Part shown: one piece after another, positions 4,760-16,515 of the stretch
Position numbering within the stretch: position 1 is the stretch's first letter
Layout of the letters: every line of letters starts with the position of its first letter
DNA from: Candidatus Helarchaeota ASGARD archaeon Hel_GB_B
GTDB taxonomy: Archaea > Asgardarchaeota > Lokiarchaeia > Helarchaeales > HEL-GB-B
Reading direction: 5' to 3'
Assembly: GCA_005191425.1 (NCBI GenBank)
Contig: SUPR01000017.1
Location: forward strand, 11,592 to 43,591
DNA length: 32,000 bases
The notes under the pieces: generated by a model
What the model was told of the DNA's origin: nothing
What the model saw: only the letters and a program-made list of their open reading frames with translations
Databases searched by the model: none
Position numbers and translations under genes: made by a program

Positions 4760-5974
4760 TTGAAATATGGTATTAATACATTAGATGATTTTGATGTTAA
4801 GGGTAAAAAAGTGCTAGTAAGAGCTGATATTAATTCAACAATTACGCGAAAAGAAAACAAATTAATGAATTTATTAAGAATTAAGGAATTAAAAAATACA
4901 TTAGATGACCTTAAAGAAGCAGCAGTAGTACTTATTGCTCATCAAGGGCGCCCAGGTGGAAAAGATTATACTTCTTTGGCTCCACATGCAGAAGCAATGA
5001 AAAAATTATATGGCGATCAAGTTCATTTTGTTGATGACTTATTCGGGACTAAAGCAAGGGCAGCAATAAAAGAACTTAAACCAGGCGAAATTTTAGTCCT
5101 TGAAAATGTTCGATTTTATGCTGAAGAAGTAAATTTAAAAAATGATATTGATAAAATGGCTGATTCTCACTTTGTCCAAAATTTGGCACCATTATTTGAT
5201 TTATATGTAAACGACGCTTATGGAGCAGCTCATAGGTCTTCTCCGTCTCTAATAGGTTTTACTAAAGTCATACCGAGTTGTATGGGACGTATCTTGGAAA
5301 AAGAAGTTGAAATTATGGAAGAAAAAATCCTAGGAAATCCTAAAAAACCTGTAATATTTGTAATTGGTGGTGCCAAAGTAGAGACTAAATTTAAAGTAAT
5401 GAAAAACCTACTTGAAAACAATAAAGCAGATTTAATTCTAATTGGTGGACTTTTACAAAATATTATGCTTGCTGCTGCTGGTATTGATATTGGAGAAATT
5501 AATAAAAAGCCAATCAAAAATTTTGACGATTACATATCTACCGCAAAGGAAATCTATCAGAAATACAAAGATAAATTGAAACTCCCAATTGACTTATCAT
5601 TAAATGACAATGGAAAAAGAAAAGATGTTCCAGTAGAAGAAATTTCAAAATATGGACTACCCTCTAACGATATCGGTGAAAAAACAGCAGAGGAATACGT
5701 AAAAATCATAAAAGAAGCTGGTACAGTTGTAGCTAATGGACCCCCTGGTGTATTTGAACAGCCACCTTTTAACTTGGGGTCTAAAATGGTACTCGAGGCT
5801 ATGGGTGAATCAAACGCATTTACTACTGTTGGTGGTGGAGAAATGGGCGGATATTGCCAAGACCTAAAAATTCCTATTAATTTCATCAGTACTGGTGGTG
5901 GAGCAATGCTTGATTATCTTACTGGTAAAAAATTACCCGTAATTGCAGCATTAGAAGAAGCTTCTAAAAAATAA
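4760..5974 (+). CDS. pgk: Phosphoglycerate kinase (archaeal type)
   Basis: VLVRADINS, AHQGRPG, LENVRF, NDAYGAAHRS, GGAKV, NGPPGVFE and ISTGGGAML motifs; TTG start with GGTGG at 4747-4751. Confidence 0.95.
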   Translation: MKYGINTLDDFDVKGKKVLVRADINSTITRKENKLMNLLRIKELKNTLDDLKEAAVVLIAHQGRPGGKDYTSLAPHAEAMKKLYGDQVHFVDDLFGTKARAAIKELKPGEILVLENVRFYAEEVNLKNDIDKMADSHFVQNLAPLFDLYVNDAYGAAHRSSPSLIGFTKVIPSCMGRILEKEVEIMEEKILGNPKKPVIFVIGGAKVETKFKVMKNLLENNKADLILIGGLLQNIMLAAAGIDIGEINKKPIKNFDDYISTAKEIYQKYKDKLKLPIDLSLNDNGKRKDVPVEEISKYGLPSNDIGEKTAEEYVKIIKEAGTVVANGPPGVFEQPPFNLGSKMVLEAMGESNAFTTVGGGEMGGYCQDLKIPINFISTGGGAMLDYLTGKKLPVIAALEEASKK

Positions 5975-6005
5975 TTTTTCATAAAAATCAAATTCTATTT
6001 TTTTA
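5975..6005 (+). terminator. T-rich tract after pgk, possible archaeal terminator
   Basis: TTTTTC directly after the stop and a T run at 5998-6004; weak evidence in an AT-rich genome. Confidence 0.3.
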
Positions 6006-6123
6006 ATAAATTAATACACCATTTTTTAGGTATATTAGCCATTTGATGAAATAAGTTCATATCTACATTTTTTAAATTTATTAGACTTTTAATATATTAC
6101 TTCTATTCCTTCATTTTTATATG

Positions 6124-7200
6124 CTATAATGCTCTTAATTTAATTATTTTCTTACGTAATATCTTATAATTAAAGTATGCTAAACATTGCATTGCTATTA
6201 ATATAAATAGACTATGTTTATGAGCTTATCTTTTATATTTCAATGATAGTCTCCTATCTATATCACCCAATAATGCATAGAAGCCATTCATCATCCCAAA
6301 CAATCCTTCAATTACCTTTCTACCTCTATATTCTATGATAAATGTATCAATTCCAACATCCTCAAATACCCTTAGATAATTTAATACCAGTTTCGAAATT
6401 TCACTTTTATTTTTTTTTCCAATTTATTTAAAGTAATGTCAATATCTTCTAAGGATCAATATTAGCACATCTTTGCTAATTTTGGAAATTTCAACCCTAA
6501 TTTTATTATCTTAAGATAATACTGCTTGAAATATTCCAACATCTTCTTTTATTCTTTTAATATGTCCGAATTCATTAGATCAATATCAACAACAAGGATT
6601 ACTCGTATTCTTTTTTCAATGAACTCCAATATCTCTAAAGAACAACATTCGGCATCTAATTTAACATGTCCTATTTTTAATTCATATTTACCAGCTTTTT
6701 TTTAAGTAAAATTAATTTATCTTTTAATGTAATAAATCCAGATCTTTCGTTCTTGCTCCCTTTACGAGAGATTATAATAAGAGGAATACAATTTGGGTCA
6801 ACTAGTACCTGAAATTTTAAGACTCGAGTACTTTTATTATCTCTATCATGATATTTTACGCCATCTTAGTCATCTTTTCTCGTTTTACAGAAAGTAGAAT
6901 CTTCGATTATCGTTTCAACATTGATAATTCCCTCTTTTATTAAAATATCCACATTATTCTCTAATATTTTCATTAAAAATATCAATGTTAAACTTTCAAT
7001 ACGCCTTATATAATTTATCAATTCTAGGGACTCTTGAAAAAACCCGAGAGAGTGTCCCATAACTTGTAATATCTCATTATCAATGATAACACTCTCATTT
7101 ATAATTAATTTTAAGTAGAGTATTGATGATAACATTTTTGATTTTATGAAAACAAAAGTTTTGTATATTAAATCTGTTGAATAGCCGTTTTTTCAATTTA
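6124..7200 (-). pseudogene. Degraded DDE transposase (IS4 superfamily: IS5/IS1182/ISH3-like)
   Basis: Pieces read by hand: IIEDSTFCKTRKDD* (first Asp), VKLDAECCSLEILEFI (second Asp), EYRGRKVIEGLFG (Y-x2-R-x3-E signature with catalytic Glu), then HSLFILIAMQCLAY. Several stops and frameshifts. The 5' boundary is approximate and no terminal IRs were identified. Confidence 0.7.
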
Positions 7201-7893
7201 ATATCCCTTTTATAAAATATTTCGTGAAACAAATTCCTTCTCTGAAACATTTAAATCTGCCCTATGGTCTGAACTCTTAGATAATTATAAGAAAATATTT
7301 ATACATTATTCTAAATATAATTTATGATACCGTTTTTTTTATCTTCTATGCAAATTTCTTGATTTTTTCTTATATTTGTCAAATATAAAACTTCTATTGC
7401 CTCATTCTGAATATGAAATATTAATATGTTCAAAAAATAATTATTAAAAATTAAAAAGCATTTGATTCCTATCATTTAAGAGTACACACTCAAGCTGTAT
7501 TGTAGTTAATCGAAATGCAGCCCCTAAAAACATTAATAATAGTCGTACTATTATTTTAATACGTCAATTATGGCAATTTATCTCTTTTTTTATTAATTCA
7601 GTCAAATTAAGAATTTTTTCTAAAAATTCTTTAATAGCAGATATCCAATATCTTTTCCACAATTCGGGCAAATATCCAATACAATCTTGCTGAATAACAG
7701 AACAACCTTCAACTAGGATATCAATTCTCACATAAACACTATTTTACATAAATAATATAATTATTAACTTAATTATAGATATATGTCTATCATAATATTG
7801 ACTAACTTTGGAATAAGAAATAGTATATAAATTTAAATTACATTGAAATCTTTAAAATAAGCCCACTAGAAAACTTGATAGATATAATAAATA

Positions 7894-7935
7894 ACCGACA
7901 AACTTAAATAAAAAGAATTATACAATTTTGTCGGT
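7894..7935. promoter_or_regulatory. 9-bp inverted repeat flanking a TATA-like box upstream of the methyltransferase
   Basis: ACCGACAAA (7894-7902) and TTTGTCGGT (7927-7935) with a 24-nt spacer starting CTTAAATA. Confidence 0.4.
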
Positions 7936-8056
7936 AGAAAATAAAGAAGAAACTTATTTTATCAAAATCCTATAATTTTATTAAATTTTTCTACATCTAA
8001 TAATTAGATATAAATGAAAGATAATAATTAATATTATTATTAATAGATAGATAAAA

Positions 8057-9034
8057 ATGACAAGAACTGATTTAAAGAAACCAACTCAGAAGAAAAGTAG
8101 AAATTACAAAGCAGGACTAGCACAATTAAATTTTAAAATCGAATTCGATTGGAGTCATGAAGAAGCAAGGAAATTATATGAAACATCTATTCATAAAATT
8201 GAAAAAAATACAATATTATATCAAGATTGCATATCGGGTATGAAAAATCTACCTGAAGAATCTGTCGATTTAATTATAGCAGATCCTCCTTTTGGAATAA
8301 ACTTCTCAGGAAAAGGTAGTCAATATAATCGAAATTCAATTTTAGTAGAAGATGGTTATGTAGAAATAAAAGAAGACTATGATAAATTTACCGAAAAATG
8401 GATTCAATGCCTTCCAAGAATAATGAAAAAAACAGCTTCGGCATATATTTTTTCGGGCTGGACAAATTTAAATGATCTTTTAAACGCTATTAATAAAACA
8501 GATTTAAAACTTGTTAATCATATTATCTGGAAATATCAATTTGGTGTGTTTACTAAAAGAAAATTTGTCTCTTCTCATTATCACATTTTATTTCTTGTAA
8601 AAAACGAAAAAAAATATTTTTTTAATAAATACGAATATTATCCAGAAGATGTATGGATTATTCCTAGGAGATACCTACCAGGTCAAAGAAAAAATGGTAC
8701 AAAATTACCTGAAGATGTTGTTAATAAGTGTATCAATTTTTCTTCAAAACCAGGTGATTTGATATTTGATCCATTTATGGGAAATGCTACAACTGCAATT
8801 TGCGCAAAAGGATTATATAGACATTATTATGGATTTGAAATAAATCAAACAATGAAGGAAATTCACCAAAATTACATTAATAATATCAAAGTAGGACAGT
8901 TTTTTAGACCACTCAAAGAATATTTACCATCTAAAGAAGAGTTATTAAAAAAATATCCTCATTTAAAGAAATATGTTAATGAGATAAAAAAATACTCTGG
9001 TAAAAAGACAAGATTAGATCGTTATTTCGAATAA
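8057..9034 (+). CDS. Amino (N6-adenine or N4-cytosine) DNA methyltransferase, beta class
   Basis: YQDCISGM (motif III region), DLIIADPPF (catalytic motif IV, 8282-8293) before DLIFDPFMGNATT (AdoMet-binding motif I), which is beta order; IIWKY and S-S-H-x-x-ILF are typical of the N6_N4 MTase family. DPP(Y/F) leans towards m6A. Confidence 0.92.
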   Translation: MTRTDLKKPTQKKSRNYKAGLAQLNFKIEFDWSHEEARKLYETSIHKIEKNTILYQDCISGMKNLPEESVDLIIADPPFGINFSGKGSQYNRNSILVEDGYVEIKEDYDKFTEKWIQCLPRIMKKTASAYIFSGWTNLNDLLNAINKTDLKLVNHIIWKYQFGVFTKRKFVSSHYHILFLVKNEKKYFFNKYEYYPEDVWIIPRRYLPGQRKNGTKLPEDVVNKCINFSSKPGDLIFDPFMGNATTAICAKGLYRHYYGFEINQTMKEIHQNYINNIKVGQFFRPLKEYLPSKEELLKKYPHLKKYVNEIKKYSGKKTRLDRYFE

Positions 9035-9052
9035 TAAAAGAGTCTGATTATT

Positions 9053-10246
9053 ATGGATGATGTTAAACTTATTGAGGTTATTGCTGAAATTGGTTCAAAA
9101 AATAAGTCTGAACCCTATATTAAGGATGTTGAGATTTTTAGACATTTTTTTGACAAAGATTTTAATTTAATTACTAATGAATTAAACAGCCTAGATGGTA
9201 ATTGTACAAGGAGGGAACTTATAACAAGATTTTTACTGTTAAACGCGGTGCTTGATCAAGGACCTGATACTGAAGGTGTTAGACAACTTCTTTGTGATAC
9301 AATAAATTATTTATATAGGCATGAAATTCGCATATTACATACACCATTAGATTTTTTTAAAGAACTTGGAATTATAATAACAGAAATCGATAATGTACAC
9401 GACATCGTTAAAAAACTAAGAGCAAAAAAATGGGCTAGAAATAACAATAGTACGGCTTTAAAATATAATTTATTTATGGATAATACAACCCAAACATTGA
9501 ATTATGCTGTATTTCGCTGGGGAGTTCCATTATCTGTTCCATTGATTTTAGAAAATGATTATAAAAGTAAGGATGATGATATAAATCCTGAACTTTTATT
9601 AGATTATTTAGAAGATGATAATGATGCCGAATGGCCCTCATCAGCAGAGATAATGTCAAAAAAAATCAAACAACACAAGCGTTATGGCTTAGGTAAGGCA
9701 ATTGGGGATAAAGCTGCCCATTTATTCGCAAAATGGATAGTACATACTTTTAATTTAACTCGTAAGAGAGATATAACTTGGGGAAAATATTCGTTTGAAG
9801 TTCCTTTCGATAGCAATGCAGGAAGAGTTCTCTTTAGAACGGGATATTTACTTAATTGGGCTGATATTGATGATTATAAGAAATCTAATGTAATACAGCC
9901 AAACCAAGGAAAAGGAGGAACAGATTATATACGAGTAACTAATATCAGGGGGATGAAAGCAACTAAAAACATTTCGACCATTGATCCTAATATCTATCGA
10001 GATCTTTGTGTTAAATATCTTTTAACGCATAGAAGAGCCCCTAAAAAATACGAGATTCAAAAAATACCAATTGCACAATTATTAAAAGAGAAAAAATATG
10101 GACCTGGGGATTTAGATGATGGATTAATGTATATTGGTACACATTTTTGTTTTAATATTGAAAATCCAAATTGTGATGATTGCCCAATTAATTCATATTG
10201 TAGTGGATTTAATGAAAATATATTAATTACTAAATATAGGACATGA
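9053..10246 (+). CDS. Enlarged HhH-GPD superfamily DNA glycosylase-like protein with C-terminal [4Fe-4S] motif
   Basis: LLNAVLDQ (N-terminal helix typical of HhH-GPD), KAIGDKAAHL (helix-hairpin-helix with Lys), VPFDSNAGRVLFRTG (catalytic Asp motif), and C-x7-C-x2-C-x5-C (CFNIENPNCDDCPINSYC; the EndoIII/MutY consensus is C-x6-C-x2-C-x5-C). Starts 18 nt after the MTase stop. Confidence 0.75.
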   Translation: MDDVKLIEVIAEIGSKNKSEPYIKDVEIFRHFFDKDFNLITNELNSLDGNCTRRELITRFLLLNAVLDQGPDTEGVRQLLCDTINYLYRHEIRILHTPLDFFKELGIIITEIDNVHDIVKKLRAKKWARNNNSTALKYNLFMDNTTQTLNYAVFRWGVPLSVPLILENDYKSKDDDINPELLLDYLEDDNDAEWPSSAEIMSKKIKQHKRYGLGKAIGDKAAHLFAKWIVHTFNLTRKRDITWGKYSFEVPFDSNAGRVLFRTGYLLNWADIDDYKKSNVIQPNQGKGGTDYIRVTNIRGMKATKNISTIDPNIYRDLCVKYLLTHRRAPKKYEIQKIPIAQLLKEKKYGPGDLDDGLMYIGTHFCFNIENPNCDDCPINSYCSGFNENILITKYRT

Positions 10247-10358
10247 TTTAATCATTAAGTTGAATTGAAAATTTTATTAGGGGTTATATGTTAATAAAAA
10301 GAATTTTTGGAATTCAGAACTAATTTTAATTATTTCTTCGTTTATTTCTTTTGATGTT

Positions 10359-10976
10359 TTAATACATACTATTAATATATTCGTATTATAAATGTTATTT
10401 AAAAAATCTTCAACTTGTAATTTTACAGTAGTTCTTTCTGGTAAAGACTATACATCATCGTGATAGGAATGGTGGTACACATAACTTAATAATTCTTTAA
10501 ATAATTTTTCTAATTTTCTTTTATTTAGAAGTGAAGAATTTTTTATTTTATTGAAAAATCTAGAACCTAAATCCTTTATGTCGCTTAAATTTTTGCAAAC
10601 TTCAAGTTTAGATTTAATACTTAGTATTGAAATGCTTTGTGTTAATATAAGATGCTTAACACATGCTATTAATTATTAATCATAATTCCCGAAACACAGA
10701 TTGATAAGAACCGAATAAAATGCAAATTTTAATCCAATCAAAAATTTTTATATATTCAGTTAATCTTATGGATATCATTAAATCATTTTTTCTATCCTTT
10801 AGTTCGGGTCTTAGGAAATCAATGTGCTCCAAGATTCTCAAAGGAATAACATTCAGTTCTGCGATTTTTTCTTGTTGTTGAATTAAAGGTTCTCCAAATT
10901 TTTCAGCATAGGGATCAATTACATTGATAATTTCATCTAAAAATCTTTCATCTATATTTTTTATGTTTAGTTCCTC
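10359..10976 (-). pseudogene. Decayed gene for a helical hypothetical protein
   Basis: Long protein-like frames broken by stops and a frameshift: EELNIKNIDERFLDEII...ICILFGSYQSVFREL*LIINSMC* then LSIKSKLEVCKNL...LFKELLSYVYHHSYHDDV*SLPERTTV...; no start codon found. Confidence 0.45.
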
Positions 10977-11336
10977 TTAAAATTAATTTATAATGATTTT
11001 GAAGAATTTCATCTCATTTTTTTTAATAGTTATTTGATTTGTAAATACCAATAAATTTTTTACCAATTTTTGTATATTAAATTACTAGTCCAATTTATAA
11101 TTTGAGAATTTTTCATTTTTTTGGACAATTAAAAAATTTTTCCAACCACCCGCCTTTTTTATGAGATGATATTCAATACTTTTTGGTTCTAAAAGATCTT
11201 CTGAAAATATTTTTTATGTGTAGATACCATTTTCATAAGTTGTAATTTTTCCTATTTTTAACATCTTTTTCCTCATTTTCTTTTTATGTTTTTATTTTAT
11301 GAGTCTATCTATCATTAATTTAAATGAAAAAGATCA

Positions 11337-11550
11337 TTATAGAAAAAAAATGATATCTAAGTATTCAAAATCATCGCGATTTATTATTATGTCTTTAAAT
11401 AACATTTCATAATCCAATGAGATAGGTTTAAGAATCGCATTATTACTTGGATCCGTCTTCATTATCCTACTTTCCCAGTGTAATATGGCGGGATCTTCTT
11501 TAATTTCTCCTTCTTCTGGTATTATCTCACCTTTTACTTTACATTTTTTT
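11337..11550 (-). pseudogene. Gene fragment, unknown family
   Basis: Open frame without a start: KNVKVKGEIIPEEGEIKEDPAILHWESRIMKTDPSNNAILKPISLDYEMLFKDIIINRDDFEYLDIIFFL*. Confidence 0.3.
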
Positions 11551-11936
11551 AAGTTTTTAGACCAATATTATTACAGATTTAATCCTTGTTTTCATAACAT
11601 TAATCATATCTTTTTTAAAACTATTTGATTCAAAAATTTTTTCAAACAGATAGGATCTTGGTAAATTGAAAAAATTCGTTGGAGAATATTCTATTTTTAT
11701 ATATCCTTTTTAATTATCTTGTCGTACAAAGCAATCCCTCATGAAATCATTAAAGAAATGATTGCAATTAAATCTGACATTAAATTACCCAAAAAGATAT
11801 GTGGATTTGACAAATTTAGTAAAATGAGAGTCAAAAAAGTAAGAATTATTGAAATAAGAAAAATTGGTGTGAAAATAATCAAAAATATCTTTTTTATTTA
11901 AATTAATTACCTTTTTAATTCAATAAATATATAGAT

Positions 11937-12320
11937 TTACACATCTTCAGATAATTCTTCATTTCTTAAGATCGTATCTTTTATTGAATCATTTGCAAGT
12001 GTTAGAATTGTTTTATAGAATTCATAAGCTGGAGTTCTCGGTGTAATATTCTCTAAAACTTTTTTTGATTCATCACGAAGATATTCATCTTGAGGCAATA
12101 TTTGACCTACGATTCCGGATTTCGTCATATTTCTAATAATATTTAATAAACTATTTTTAATCTCTTCATAACATTTAAAGTCAATGGAATATGCTTTACT
12201 TAATAATTTTGATATGAAATCTGTTTTAGAAAAAATTAGTTGAGGTGGTGCGTTATGAAGTAATAAACCGATACAACTTAATTTTTGCAAATCATCTGAA
12301 TCAATCCACTCATTGTCCAT
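11937..12320 (-). pseudogene. Probable C-terminal fragment of a larger protein, abutting the IS110 3' end
   Basis: 127-aa helical ORF starting 12 nt after the IS110 transposase stop, with no room for its own promoter; a neighbouring frame reads KEENIELILRW just upstream, suggesting a frameshifted continuation. Confidence 0.4.
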
Positions 12321-12332
12321 CTTAAAATTAAT

Positions 12333-13505
12333 TCAATATTCTCTTCTTTTTAACATATACCAAATTATTGTTAGTAATTTTCTCGCACCTGCACATATTG
12401 CTTTCCAATAATTATCGGTTCACTCTTTTATCTTCAACACATATCTTTTTATTGGATTTTTTTCCTTTTGCATATATGTTCTTACATATTAAAACAACTG
12501 CTCTTCTTAGATATTTATTTCCACCCTTCTGAATTTTTCCTGTTATATGTTTTTTATGCCAGGACTGATAGACCTTTAGTGCAAGTCCAGCCCATTTGAC
12601 CAATTTTCTTGGACTCTGAAAATATGTGATGTCTGTTATTTCAGCCATAATAACCACGGATATATTTGGTTCCACTCTAAGAATTGTTAATAGAAGCTCT
12701 ATTTGCTTTTTGAATTGTTTATTATTCTTTGCTATTACATAATAAGTTGATTCTTGCTTTTTCTCTATTATACTTAAAAATTAGAGCTGTATTGTATCAT
12801 TTTAAAAAGTTACAGATTCGATTTCATCGAACTTATCTTGAAAATTTTTAAATTCCTTTATTTGAGTTTCGTCCTTTACTAAGTATGAATAGTTTCCTTT
12901 AATAACACTTAAACTTTTATCATCAACCGCCCTTATTGATGCTAAACTTAATAATTCCAAGCCTTGCTTGGAATTCAACAATTTCTTATATTTAAAATCT
13001 TTTTGGTGGAATATTTGGTTTACCCTCTGTTTTATCTTTGTTTTTTCATTTATAATTTTGTACCTATACCTAACTGCTTTCCTTAAATTGAATAATTCAA
13101 CAAGAGGGATTAACGATGGCTTCAATCTACTATCTCTATGCGCCACGGCGATCCTCCTTGCATCAAATTTGTTAGTTTTTTTACCCTGTGTTGTTTTTGT
13201 CTGTTGCGGATTTGCTACTAATATGTCAATCCCATTATTTACCATTTCAAATACTAGTTTGAAATGATATTGTGCTGTTGATTCCACAGCAACACTTATC
13301 ACCTTATATCTTCTTATTATTTTAATTAAACGATTAATTCCAACATAGTTATTTAACAATTCATCTTTTCTTTTAATATTTTATCTTCGTCCACTATGCA
13401 ATATGCCATTATATCCCTATGCACGTCAATACCCATTACCGCTCCTTTTTTTCTTTTTCCTTCACCCTCTTCCAATTCCAAAAAATTTTTATTTTTGTTT
13501 CTCAT
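12333..13505 (-). pseudogene. IS110-family transposase/recombinase pseudogene
   Basis: ATG 13505 gives MRNK...VMGIDVHRD (DEDD D1), then VAVESTAQYH (E), NPQQTK..GKKTNKFDARRIA (D-x-x-D with D to N), IMAEITDITYFQSPRKLVKWAGL..VYQS..ITGKIQKGGNKYLRRA (Tnp domain), and KAICAGARKLLTIIWYMLK, TGA at 12335-12333. Several stops and frameshifts. Confidence 0.9.
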
Positions 13506-13507
13506 GA

Positions 13508-13714
13508 TTTATCACATCTTTTATTTGAAAATATGATGGGCTGCAAAACTTGGCATGGACGCCAATTTATATTAGGAGCTCTAAGCTCAATCGGACGATC
13601 CGGCTGCCAAGTTTTCATAGTTTATTTTAGAGGATATAGGCCAGCAGAAGCCCATTCCTAAATAAATTTCATGATAATTGCAGCCCATCACCTTTAATTT
13701 AAATTTGTGATAAA
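13508..13714 (-). ncRNA. Candidate IS110 bridge/seek-type structured RNA
   Basis: Nested inverted repeats: 13508-13516/13706-13714 (9 bp), 13534-13546/13678-13690 (13 bp perfect), 13545-13555/13605-13615 (11 bp), small hairpins at 13576-13588 and 13592-13602, and a long hairpin at 13621-13666. GC-rich compared with its flanks. Confidence 0.5.
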
Positions 13715-13743
13715 AAAAGATTTCTATTGGAAATGAATTTTTC

Positions 13744-16515
13744 CTAAAAATTTGTTATGTGTTTATTTTTTAACATATTACGAAGTACTGTCTGCAATAT
13801 TCCGCCATTTCTGTAGTATTTAACTTCCATTAAATTATCCAGTCTAATTTCGACTTTAAATTTTTTAATTTGTTTTTGATTTTTGTCTTTAATTATTATA
13901 TTTAATTCTTTATTTGGGCCTAAATCATTTAATCCTATAATATCATATAAATAATCTCCCTTAATCCCTAATGTATCAATATTCTCGCCACTTTTAAATT
14001 GCAATGGTAATACACCCATTCCTATTAAATTACTTCTATGAATTCGTTCAAAAGATTCTGCAATTACTGCTTTTATTCCTAATAACTGAGTCCCTTTAGC
14101 TGCCCAATCTCTCGAACTTCCAGTACCGTATTCTTTACCTGCAAAAATAATAGTTGGAATACCATTTTCTAAATACTTCATTGCTGCATTATAAATTGGC
14201 ATTTCTTCATTTGTAGGTAGATAAATGGTCCAGCCACCTTCTCTATTGGGTGTTAATTTATTTTTTAATCTGATATTGCTAAAAGTACCTCTTATCATAA
14301 CCTCATGATTACCGCGTCTAGACCCGAAAGAATTGAATGAATTTATATTTATGTTATGAGATATTAAATATTGGCCCGCAGGACTGTCTTTTGGAATTGA
14401 TCCCGCCGGCGATATATGGTCCGTCGTTATTGAATCCCCCAAGATAGCTAAACACCTTGCATTTTTTATATCCGATAATTTAGGCATTTCTATTGAAAAA
14501 TCTTTAAAAAAAGGCGGTTCAAGTATATAGGTCGAATTCTTATCCCATTTAAATAATTTTCCACCTTGAATTTCCAAGCTATTCCATTGTTCAGTTCCTT
14601 CAAAAATATTTGAATATTGTTTTTTAAAAATACTTGAATTAATATTTTTATCAATTAATTCCATAATTTCATCATTTGTAGGCCAAATTTCACTTAGATA
14701 GACTGGATCTCCATTTGGATCATAACCCAATGGCTCTTTTTTTAAATTTATTAAAATATTACCTGCAATTGCAAAAGCAATAACTAACATGGGTGATGCT
14801 AAATAACTTGCTTTTATTAATGGGTGTACTCTACCTTCAAAATTTCTATTTCCAGATATTATACTTACAGCAATTATATTTTTATTAAGTATTATTTTTT
14901 CTATTTCATTAAATAAATGACCACTATTTCCAATACATGTAGTACAACCATATCCAACAATATGAAATCCTAACCCCTCTAAATATGGTAAAAGTCCAGC
15001 TTTTTCTAAATAATCTTTTACAACTCTTGACCCTGGAGCTAAACTTGTTTTTATAAATGGTTTAACTTTTAGACCATGTTCAATAGCTTTTTTAGCTAGT
15101 AATCCCGCTCCTATTAAAACATTTGGATTTGATGTATTAGTGCATGAAGTAATAGCAGCTAAAACTATAGTACCATCAACAATTTCATCTATGAAATATA
15201 GCTCATTTCCAAATCCTTTTTGAATTTGCTTTTGATTAAATTTATTATCTTTAAAGTTTTTATTATGGTTATTTAAATTAATAGAACTACTCTTAGAATT
15301 ATTATAATTTTTTACTATTTCTTTAAATGCATCTTTTAATTTAATTAATGATACACGATCTTGAGGCCTTTTAGGGCCCGCTAAACTTGGTACAACATTT
15401 CCTAAATCAAATTCTATTATCTTACTATATACTACTCTATTATTATTATATTCTTTTAAAAAAAGTCCCTGCTCAATTGTATATTTCTTGACCAAATTAA
15501 CAAGTTCTTTATTCCTACCACTTAATTCTAAATATTCTAAAGTTTTTGTATCAATTGGAAAATATCCAATAGTAGCTCCATATTCTGGTGCCATATTTGA
15601 AATTGTAGCTCTATCGGGTAATGATAATTGTTTTAGTCCTGTGCCAAAAAATTCAATGAACTTTCCTACAACACCATATCTTCTAAGTAATTCTGTAATT
15701 GAAAGAACAATATCCGTAGCACAAACATCATCATCCAATTTTCCATATAATTTTACTCCAACCACATCTGGTAATGATAAATAATATGGTTGCCCAAGCA
15801 TAACCGCTTCTGCCTCAATTCCCCCCACACCCCACCCAACTATACCAAGTCCACCAATCATAGTCGTGTGTGAATCAGTCCCTAAAACCGTATCTGGATA
15901 GGCATATAATTCATCTCCAACTTTCTTCATTTGAATTACAGAAGCTAAATATTCTAAATTAATTTGATGAATTATACCTCTTCCGGGTGGAATTACTCGA
16001 AAATTATTAAAAGAATTTTGTGCCCATTTTAATAAACTATAACGTTCTTTATTTCTGGTAAATTCTTTTTTTTCATTTAATTCTCTTGATTTTTTAGTCC
16101 CAAAATAATTCACTTGAATTGAATGGTCTATTATCAAATCAGCTGGAATCACCGGATTAATCTCGGAAGGGTCTTTCCCAAGTCTATATAATGCAGATCT
16201 CATAGCAGCTAAATCCACTACAGCTGGCACACCTGTAAAATCTTGCAATATAACCCTAGCCGGTTTGAATGGAATTTCTTTCCTCTCTAAGTTATTAACT
16301 GTCCAATTAGCTATATTTTTTATATCTTGTACCTTAATAATCTGCCCATCAAACTGCCGTACGATAGATTCTAATAAAATTTTTATTGAAAAAGGTAATT
16401 GAGAAATCTTATCTAAACCATATTCTTTTAATTTATCAATTTTGAATATATTAAATTCTTTATTATCTATTTTAATCCGTTCTTTAACATTATTTGGGTC
16501 AAAATTTTCATTCAT
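13744..16515 (-). CDS. acnA: Aconitate hydratase A (AcnA/IRP1-like)
   Basis: RVILQDFTGVP, DLIIDHS, GIIHQINLE, GTDSHTTM, AAITSCTNTSNP, GYGCTTCIGNSG, SGNRNFEGR, DHISPAG and YGTGSSRDWAAKG; 923 aa. Confidence 0.97.
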   Translation of the reverse strand: MNENFDPNNVKERIKIDNKEFNIFKIDKLKEYGLDKISQLPFSIKILLESIVRQFDGQIIKVQDIKNIANWTVNNLERKEIPFKPARVILQDFTGVPAVVDLAAMRSALYRLGKDPSEINPVIPADLIIDHSIQVNYFGTKKSRELNEKKEFTRNKERYSLLKWAQNSFNNFRVIPPGRGIIHQINLEYLASVIQMKKVGDELYAYPDTVLGTDSHTTMIGGLGIVGWGVGGIEAEAVMLGQPYYLSLPDVVGVKLYGKLDDDVCATDIVLSITELLRRYGVVGKFIEFFGTGLKQLSLPDRATISNMAPEYGATIGYFPIDTKTLEYLELSGRNKELVNLVKKYTIEQGLFLKEYNNNRVVYSKIIEFDLGNVVPSLAGPKRPQDRVSLIKLKDAFKEIVKNYNNSKSSSINLNNHNKNFKDNKFNQKQIQKGFGNELYFIDEIVDGTIVLAAITSCTNTSNPNVLIGAGLLAKKAIEHGLKVKPFIKTSLAPGSRVVKDYLEKAGLLPYLEGLGFHIVGYGCTTCIGNSGHLFNEIEKIILNKNIIAVSIISGNRNFEGRVHPLIKASYLASPMLVIAFAIAGNILINLKKEPLGYDPNGDPVYLSEIWPTNDEIMELIDKNINSSIFKKQYSNIFEGTEQWNSLEIQGGKLFKWDKNSTYILEPPFFKDFSIEMPKLSDIKNARCLAILGDSITTDHISPAGSIPKDSPAGQYLISHNININSFNSFGSRRGNHEVMIRGTFSNIRLKNKLTPNREGGWTIYLPTNEEMPIYNAAMKYLENGIPTIIFAGKEYGTGSSRDWAAKGTQLLGIKAVIAESFERIHRSNLIGMGVLPLQFKSGENIDTLGIKGDYLYDIIGLNDLGPNKELNIIIKDKNQKQIKKFKVEIRLDNLMEVKYYRNGGILQTVLRNMLKNKHITNF

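Follow-up and report, generated by a model that had tools for sequence, protein, structure and literature searches.

The 32,000-nucleotide window analyzed here, from the Asgard archaeon Candidatus Helarchaeota Hel_GB_B (contig SUPR01000017.1), carries at positions 8057-10246 a module of two genes, P0001 and P0002, encoding a DNA methyltransferase (MTase) and an enlarged glycosylase-like protein of the helix-hairpin-helix (HhH)-GPD type. The pair is interpreted as a probable Type II-like restriction-modification (R-M) system in which the restriction component (R) would be a methylation-blocked, sequence-specific base-excision/apurinic-apyrimidinic (AP)-lyase enzyme. It is also judged somewhat likely that P0002 and its relatives constitute a further family of base-excision restriction enzymes with no structural relation to the known one, namely homodimeric HhH-GPD [4Fe-4S] glycosylase/lyases that read unmethylated sequence, have m6A- or m4C-type partners, and are spread over more than 12 bacterial phyla and Asgard archaea. 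The features of the module are as follows.

8057..9034, + strand: MTase gene P0001, encoding a beta-class exocyclic-amino DNA methyltransferase of 325 amino acids (aa) (Pfam PF01555, PADLOC MTase_II, CcrM)
8282..8293, + strand: MTase motif IV, DPPF (residues 76-79), found by regular expression on P0001
8768..8791, + strand: MTase motif I, the S-adenosylmethionine-binding DPFMGNAT (residues 238-245), which aligns to CcrM DPFFGVGTT
9035..9052, + strand: intergenic spacer of 18 nucleotides (nt), read from the sequence
9053..10246, + strand: glycosylase-like gene P0002, encoding an enlarged HhH-GPD [4Fe-4S]-type glycosylase/AP-lyase-like protein of 397 aa (AlphaFold2 model, VIA-align)
9347..9559, + strand: main predicted two-fold dimer interface, residues 99-169, including YAVFRWGVPL (complex prediction)
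9686..9733, + strand: HhH motif GLGKAIGDKAAHLFAK (residues 212-227), from hhalign against an Nth alignment
9710-9712, + strand: K220, at the position of the endonuclease III (EndoIII) Schiff-base Lys, from the same alignment
9809..9811, + strand: D253, the predicted catalytic Asp in PFDSNAGRV, aligned to MutY D138 and the Nth Asp
10148..10201, + strand: Fe-S cluster loop C366-x7-C374-x2-C377-x5-C383, aligned to the MutY/Nth loop

Both open reading frames (ORFs) are intact and lie on the + strand, and they are probably expressed as one transcript. The coordinates, the Pfam assignment and the motif order agree with the initial annotation, which had described an intact beta-class amino-MTase followed after 18 nt by an intact 397-aa protein on the same strand.

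The assignment of P0002 was deduced mainly from its predicted structure. Searched against Pfam, NCBIfam, PADLOC and PHROGs, it gave no match above a curated cut-off or with a significant E-value; weak similarity was limited to EndIII_4Fe-2S (E 0.022) and NCBIfam mutY (29.5 bits; cut-off 286.5). P0002 was likewise unmatched by PF00730 in hmmscan, and a search of the whole genome with PF00730 found only a canonical Nth on contig C103. The AlphaFold2 model (predicted local distance difference test [pLDDT], 96; predicted template modeling score, 0.93) was almost all-helical, with 18 helices and one 3-residue strand assigned by DSSP. In an exhaustive structural search with VIA-align, the top 25 matches were all HhH-GPD proteins (Z 13.7-5.0), and the next match stood at Z 4.5. 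The highest scores were for QNG1 (13.7), EndoIII (13.3 and 12.2), Mig (12.3), MutY (12) and ROS1 (11.7), while AGOG, OGG, MagIII, AlkA, Tag and MBD4 were also among the 25. The Foldseek E-values were weak (at least 0.076), and there too the top matches all belonged to the HhH-GPD superfamily. Membership of P0002 in the HhH-GPD DNA glycosylase superfamily is confirmed at the level of the model, and structure prediction, proposed in the initial annotation as a check, gave the fold expected there. About 190-250 of the 397 residues were aligned to HhH-GPD structures. Since only 210-250 of the 397 align, roughly 170 residues of the modeled protein appear to be family-specific additions.

The catalytic motifs were located with profiles. 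P0002 contains the motifs GLGKAIGDKAAHLF, PFDSNAGRV and C366-x7-C374-x2-C377-x5-C383. A profile of 46 relatives placed PFDSNAGRV on MutY LDGNVKRVL, so that D253 corresponds to D138 of Escherichia coli MutY (best E 1.6e-6), and placed the C-terminal Cys loop on the MutY iron-sulfur loop. Profile-profile comparison by hhalign with an Nth alignment from the host's phylum set AIGDKAA on GVGEKTA and PFDSNAGRV on PVDTHILRV, so that K220 corresponds to the Schiff-base Lys of Nth and D253 to its Asp (E 2.5e-5, only 50% probability). The Nth alignment was needed, as in a comparison with one Nth sequence the cluster loop was the sole part to align. Among the 46 relatives, which reach down to 23% identity, D253 was conserved in 46/46, K220 in 45/46 and the four Cys residues in 45-46/46. 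The K220-D253 spacing is 33 residues versus 18, owing to an insertion, and the first spacer of the cluster loop is x7 versus x6 in the EndoIII/MutY consensus Cys-x6-Cys-x2-Cys-x5-Cys. From this pattern, the loop is predicted to be a [4Fe-4S] cluster loop of the EndoIII/MutY Fe-S type. The HhH, catalytic Asp and four-Cys Fe-S assignments made in the initial annotation are therefore borne out by the model, the 25 structural matches and the conservation. Another candidate for the catalytic Asp, in IDPNIYRDL (residue 310), which phmmer aligned to MutY VDGNV, was rejected because D311 is not conserved and the family profile points to D253. Given that the Asp/Lys pair and the Fe-S loop are retained, it is argued that P0002 would be an active bifunctional glycosylase/lyase rather than a sensor.

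A word-indexed search of 5.8 billion proteins returned 670 relatives of P0002, none with a Pfam domain, and every name given to them by their source was "hypothetical protein." An exhaustive HMMER scan of 1.84 billion cluster representatives matched only 115, from which it was concluded that the family is compact and distinct and is not the tail of the Nth/MutY family. Proteins that resemble P0002 by language-model features were also seen in the ESM Atlas; these are HhH-GPD-like clusters, unnamed or barely annotated, and include one of 313 aa mostly from Thermoproteota, one of 298 aa with Bathyarchaeota, and DUF2400 ("iron-sulfur cluster loop").

The neighborhood of the family was surveyed in 77 loci from GTDB species-representative genomes. 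An N6_N4 MTase lay directly beside the glycosylase in 73/77 loci, the opposite of the outcome named in the initial annotation as refuting a functional pair, that homologues would mostly occur without an MTase. The pairing, met in about 70 genomes, goes far beyond what chance would give. In 72/77 loci the adjoining MTase came from a single homology cluster, its members lying upstream of the glycosylase in 68 cases and downstream in 5, with the strand shared in both arrangements, and convergently in 2 (a sum of 75, since three loci carry two MTase members). Intergenic distances of -46 to +166 nt were seen. In L075, the locus that diverges most (glycosylase identity, 36%), the upstream N6_N4 MTase overlaps the glycosylase gene and has a different architecture. 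The four loci without an MTase consist of one that starts at a contig edge (L042), one truncated where its contig ends (L074) and two fragmentary genes from one genome (L070 and L076). All intact homologues with readable flanks adjoin an N6_N4 MTase, so that the adjacency is obligate, and two proteins with only about 30% identity to P0002 (P0183 and P0193) also adjoin N6_N4 MTases.

The arrangement of the two genes varies, with tandem M-R, R-M, divergent and convergent layouts all being met. The closest relatives of P0002 have a divergent (P0004, 71% identity) and a convergent (P0005, 70%) layout, while in the P0087 lineage R precedes M with a 4-nt overlap. The flanking genes are unrelated housekeeping genes that differ between lineages. 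No third conserved gene was found, as no family occurred in more than 7 of the 77 loci once antisense shadow ORFs were discounted; no nuclease partner was conserved across the 77 loci; and no fused forms above 696 aa were found, which is weak evidence. In the locus of one 70%-identical relative, a Pfam-negative ORF of 242 aa (L135:1684-2412, + strand) lies between the glycosylase and the convergent MTase.

The class of the MTase was deduced from its matches and motifs. P0001 matches Pfam N6_N4_Mtase (PF01555) with an E-value of 1.4e-33 and the PADLOC models for Type II methyltransferases (MTase_II) at 8.6e-60, and its nearest solved structure is CcrM (1e-26). Motif IV (DPPF) lies N-terminal of motif I (DPFMGNAT), the beta-class order. 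D/N-PP-Y/F is the motif of N6-adenine MTases and S-PP-Y/F that of N4-cytosine MTases; based on its DPPF motif, P0001 is probably an N6-adenine (m6A) enzyme. The 66 partner MTases tallied by motif IV comprised 43 SPPY, 18 DPPF and 5 DPPY. None of the 66 was therefore of the C5-cytosine type, and about two thirds of the partners across the glycosylase family carry SPPY, the motif typical of N4-cytosine enzymes. The m6A/m4C designation in the initial annotation thus holds for the copy in the window, whose motif is of the N6-adenine type, and is refined by the predominance of SPPY among its relatives. Some carriers have further N6_N4 MTases near the pair, either about 2.3 kb upstream (L011:2820-3668 and L057:2253-3716, both + strand) or 750 nt downstream (L055).

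Prediction of P0002 in two copies gave an ipSAE of 0.80 in all three runs, while three controls gave 0.00. The ipSAE mark applied was reached by 20/30 solved homodimers and by 1/23 proteins solved as single chains. The runs agreed in at least 98% of contacts, with a partner pLDDT of at least 90. The interface comprises residues 99-113, 143-169 and 206-216 and is two-fold symmetric, with residues 154 and 102 each contacting themselves across the axis (154-154 and 102-102). It takes in the conserved, family-specific YAVFRWGVPL helix and the segment leading into the HhH. P0002 is accordingly modeled as a symmetric homodimer. To our knowledge, repair HhH-GPD enzymes act as monomers, and for this reason the predicted dimer is unlikely to be a memory of a solved complex.

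The pair is distributed sporadically across phyla. The host genome is an Asgard archaeal metagenome-assembled genome of 3.54 Mb in 182 contigs (28% GC, 94% complete); in a genome of the same order, PGK groups at 90% or more with proteins bearing the names Helarchaeota/Hodarchaeota. Carriers were found in Chloroflexota (many), Planctomycetota, Pseudomonadota, Acidobacteriota, Ignavibacteriota, Elusimicrobiota, Bacteroidota, Fibrobacterota, Nitrospirota, Nitrospinota, Myxococcota, Bacillota and Lokiarchaeia, that is, in more than 12 phyla plus Asgard archaea. Cultured carriers include Anaerolinea thermophila, which has an SPPY-type partner, Thermanaerothrix daxensis and Thioalkalivibrio sp. HK1. 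Glycosylase identity was 44-60% in nearly all full-length loci. The glycosylase was found in none of 40 genomes from the genus, order and class of the host. As nearly all named carriers other than the host are bacteria while the host is an Asgard archaeon, the distribution implies that the module was transferred between domains.

The joint history of the two genes was assessed from the motif type of the MTase (SPPY/DPPF/DPPY) mapped on the glycosylase tree, which required 8 changes versus 19.8 when shuffled, and from the pairwise identities of the two proteins, which correlate (Mantel r 0.565; 0/999 permutations). From the few tree changes and the correlation it was concluded that the pairs mostly travel together. 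Partners have also been swapped, however: in L011 and L018 the glycosylases are 81% identical while the MTases are 24% identical and of different type (SPPY versus DPPF). Glycosylase identity is 41-99% within MTase classes and averages 51% between classes, while the MTases are 24% identical between classes.

Loss of the two genes is one-sided. An intact MTase stands beside a decayed glycosylase in L073 and L077, and no locus showed the opposite. The host itself has a solitary MTase, 64% identical to P0001, on another contig (C128:15350-16288, - strand, equal to L127:5351-6289, - strand). Its neighbors are nitroreductase/CofD/CofC genes on one side and RNase P p30/Pop5/L15e genes on the other, and no glycosylase is close by. 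Homologous solitary MTases occur in 14/40 relatives of the host, with copies of 60-62% identity in 4 of those 14, and the solitary MTases fall in the same clade as the glycosylase-linked ones. The solitary MTase of the host may be left over from an earlier copy of the system, or may have protected the host in advance. At L077, only a 39-residue remnant of the glycosylase remains beside the intact MTase, and the next gene (6400-8202, + strand) encodes a GmrSD-type (Type IV) restriction enzyme, which hints at a defense-island setting.

The interpretation of the pair as an R-M system, the first of three options raised in the initial annotation and the one favored here by inference, was reached from several lines of evidence. 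These are the predicted symmetric homodimer, the retention of the EndoIII-type Lys and Asp, the variable gene orientation, the swapping of partners, the sporadic distribution, the decay of the glycosylase beside a surviving MTase, the dependence of the glycosylase on the MTase and not vice versa, and the lack of a third component. It is also backed by the presence in the host of a separate canonical, PF00730-detected Nth (contig C103), which would serve ordinary repair. According to the proposed mechanism, the beta-class MTase would mark a specific sequence in the host DNA and homodimeric P0002 would recognize the same sequence when unmethylated. P0002 would then flip out a base and excise it via Asp253, after which Lys220 would form a Schiff base at the abasic site and the strand would be broken by beta-elimination. 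As the two-fold axis relates two active sites, both strands of a palindromic site would be hit, and incoming DNA would thereby be destroyed. We thus infer for P0002 a glycosylase/lyase activity on a base of the site, sequence specificity, blocking by methylation and a role in defense.

With regard to the site, the high conservation of the glycosylase leads to the speculation that the family may have one shared specificity, by analogy with the PabI family. Since both m6A-type and m4C-type partners are used, the site is further speculated to contain both A and C, in which case methylation would block recognition and need not lie on the base to be excised. k-mer avoidance in the host genome gave no signal attributable to the module. 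GGACC/GGTCC is the most underrepresented word of the host genome (observed/expected, 0.44; z, -32); depletion extends to GGGCCC and GGATCC but not to GANTC. The GGACC-type depletion may stem from a different restriction system, whether current or former; as no link to the module could be made, it was not used to assign a recognition site.

Several observations weigh against an R-M function. The homodimer is a prediction, made with an alignment built for this analysis, and the alignment that positions K220 has a probability of just 50%. Vsr and Mig, which are repair enzymes, are also tightly linked to an MTase in an operon. Conservation is higher in the glycosylase than in the MTases, the reverse of most Type II systems; this fits a PabI-like family with a single specificity, but it also fits a sequence-independent repair enzyme. 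No P0002 homologue was found in viral contigs, phage records or plasmids, and mobility is therefore deduced from the distribution alone. Furthermore, the GC content and composition of the module are not distinct from those of the host genome.

The leading alternative is that P0002 is a repair glycosylase dedicated to damage inflicted by the partner MTase, either off-target alkylation (3-methylcytosine, 1-methyladenine or 3-methyladenine) or deaminated methyl-bases at the target. It is considered unlikely, even though HhH-GPD enzymes are overwhelmingly repair enzymes, the tight operon resembles dcm-vsr, and a glycosylase far more conserved than its MTases and tolerant of SPPY/DPPF swaps is what a sequence-independent enzyme would look like. 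As an analogy, ALKB2 reportedly co-evolves with the DNA methyltransferases (DNMTs). However, the partners of P0002 are N6/N4 amino-MTases and not m5C enzymes, and the deamination products of N6- and N4-methyl-bases (hypoxanthine and uracil) are handled by general enzymes. Solitary MTases from the clade of the glycosylase-linked ones are maintained in the host itself and in 14/40 of its relatives. P0002 is also about 170 residues larger than Nth or Mig, is predicted to form a symmetric dimer in place of the monomers of repair HhH-GPD enzymes, and keeps the putative lyase Lys that is absent from Mig and MutY. The sporadic occurrence of the pair across phyla and the host's own Nth likewise count against a dedicated repair role.

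Two further alternatives were considered. As the eraser of a writer/eraser pair, P0002 would remove the m6A or m4C placed by its partner in the fashion of DEMETER/ROS1, giving reversible epigenetic marks. ROS1 is among the structural matches (Z 11.7) and is, like P0002, an Fe-S HhH-GPD protein of bifunctional type with large insertions, and the two genes are taken to be co-transcribed. This same co-expression from one operon would result in a constant futile cycle of abasic sites and nicks, and a two-fold dimer as predicted would produce double-strand breaks at fully methylated palindromes. The sporadic distribution, horizontal spread and decay of the glycosylase fit a selfish or defense module better than a regulatory circuit, and an eraser is regarded as very improbable. 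A restriction-like system in which the HhH-GPD protein does not itself break DNA is quite unlikely; the protein could, for example, be monofunctional and assisted by host AP endonucleases, or be a sensor of unmethylated sites with another partner. Precedent exists for both versions, as restriction by R.PabI in vivo depends partly on host AP endonucleases (PMC5388411) and the END nucleases use an EndoIII-like domain as a sensor only (PMC12191111). The moderate confidence with which K220 is aligned would also allow it. The near invariance of the Asp and Lys argues otherwise, as the catalytic residues are lost in END nucleases, and so does the lack of a third gene conserved in the 77 loci; the lack of fused forms points weakly in the same direction. 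The eraser and repair options of the initial annotation are accordingly retained as lesser rivals of the methylation-blocked restriction glycosylase.

The local setting of the module was also analyzed. It lies inside an ORF-poor stretch of about 7.8 kb (5975-13743) flanked by PGK (4760-5974) and aconitase (13744-16515, - strand), with the following further features.

5975..8056, no strand: ORF-poor stretch upstream of the module, with no Pfam match and with short repeats common to other contigs
12412..13359, - strand: broken IS110-family transposase in two frames, Transposase_20 (12412-12675) and DEDD_Tnp_IS110 (12802-13359)
13696..13771, no strand: dispersed repeat of about 76 bp, with copies on at least 13 other contigs in a whole-genome blastn search

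Repeats at 6022-6153, 6400-6714 and 7832-7993 also occur on contigs C133, C108 and C146 of the host genome. The broken transposase, located 2.2 kb downstream, probably represents a decayed insertion sequence (IS). The 76-bp repeat, which overlaps the 3' end of the aconitase ORF, is 97-100% identical in its other copies. Because its region has a longer match of 259 bp to contig C36, it is probably an IS end or the terminus of a miniature inverted-repeat transposable element, at the right edge of an inserted region. Taken together, the repeats, the broken transposase and the dispersed 76-bp repeat make 5975-13743 fit an insertion region. An empty site for comparison was sought in three relatives (G001, G003 and G005); PGK and aconitase are not neighbors there, so that this comparison gave no insertion boundary. 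No nuclease family was detected in the flanks (5975-8056 and 10247-11936), where ten stop-to-stop pieces were without a Pfam match, and a hidden nuclease pseudogene was rejected on these grounds. The statement in the initial annotation that no nuclease partner is visible thus stands, both for these flanks and for the loci of the relatives. A chain of short open pieces on the minus strand at 10277-11709 could be a pseudogene. tRNA and Rfam scans of the window gave no match.

Among known systems, the closest parallel is provided by the PabI family (R.PabI, R.HpyAXII and R.CcoLI with their m6A MTases), which likewise forms a two-gene module of an MTase and a non-phosphodiesterase partner. Removal of an unmethylated base with subsequent breakage of the strand by AP lyase, as proposed here, the homodimer, as predicted here, and the high conservation, possible single specificity and sporadic, horizontally spread occurrence are all shared with that family. 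The scaffolds differ, with an all-helical HhH-GPD fold and a predicted [4Fe-4S] loop in P0002 versus the curved antiparallel beta-sheet of the HALFPIPE fold; P0002 also has a putative EndoIII-type Asp/Lys pair, and its family has partners of both the N6A and N4C types. With Nth and MutY, P0002 shares the fold (Z 12-13), the HhH, the catalytic Asp, the four-Cys loop and probably, at the Nth position, the Lys. It differs from them in its size (397 aa versus a catalytic core of about 210-230), in being PF00730-negative, in the x7 rather than x6 first Cys spacer, and in its predicted dimer, obligate MTase linkage and patchy distribution.

Other repair or defense proteins resemble the pair in single respects. 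Mig.MthI, an HhH-GPD enzyme beside M.MthTI, and Vsr, another type of repair enzyme beside Dcm, also adjoin DNA MTases. Their partners are m5C MTases and they repair the T:G mismatch arising from 5mC deamination, whereas the partners here are N6/N4 amino-MTases; Mig is moreover small (about 220 aa), monofunctional and without the Lys. DEMETER/ROS1 are Fe-S HhH-GPD enzymes with large insertions, bifunctional as is predicted for P0002, and tied to a methyl mark. They are eukaryotic, however, excise the methylated base, are not encoded with an MTase and are structurally distant (Z 11.7). The END nucleases, as proposed here for P0002, bring an HhH-GPD-derived domain into prokaryotic defense, but consist of a PLD nuclease fused to an inactivated EndoIII/OGG-like domain and target hypermodified phage DNA with no MTase (PMC12191111). 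P0002 differs from them in that its predicted catalytic residues are kept and that it stands alone and is paired with an MTase.

Reviews of base-excision restriction enzymes (2023) and of R-M biology (2025) name the PabI family only. No HhH-GPD restriction glycosylase was found in full-text literature searches, which had most subscription journals and REBASE outside their scope. Searches for an Anaerolinea methylome likewise gave nothing relevant.

If the R-M interpretation is true, the family would represent a second independent origin of base-excision restriction and the first instance in which the classic repair scaffold was turned into the R of an R-M system. It would show that normal bases can become the target of a sequence-specific attack by glycosylases derived from repair. 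Catalogues of defense systems would gain an unannotated component; without a Pfam, NCBIfam or PADLOC model, such loci read as "orphan methyltransferase plus hypothetical protein." The family could yield a new class of sequence-specific base-excision reagents and offer a prokaryotic comparison for DEMETER/ROS1-type readers of methylation status, and an Fe-S cluster in a defense enzyme would bear on the debated role of the cluster in DNA scanning. Many of the "solitary" MTases in Chloroflexota and other uncultured lineages may then belong to complete R-M systems.

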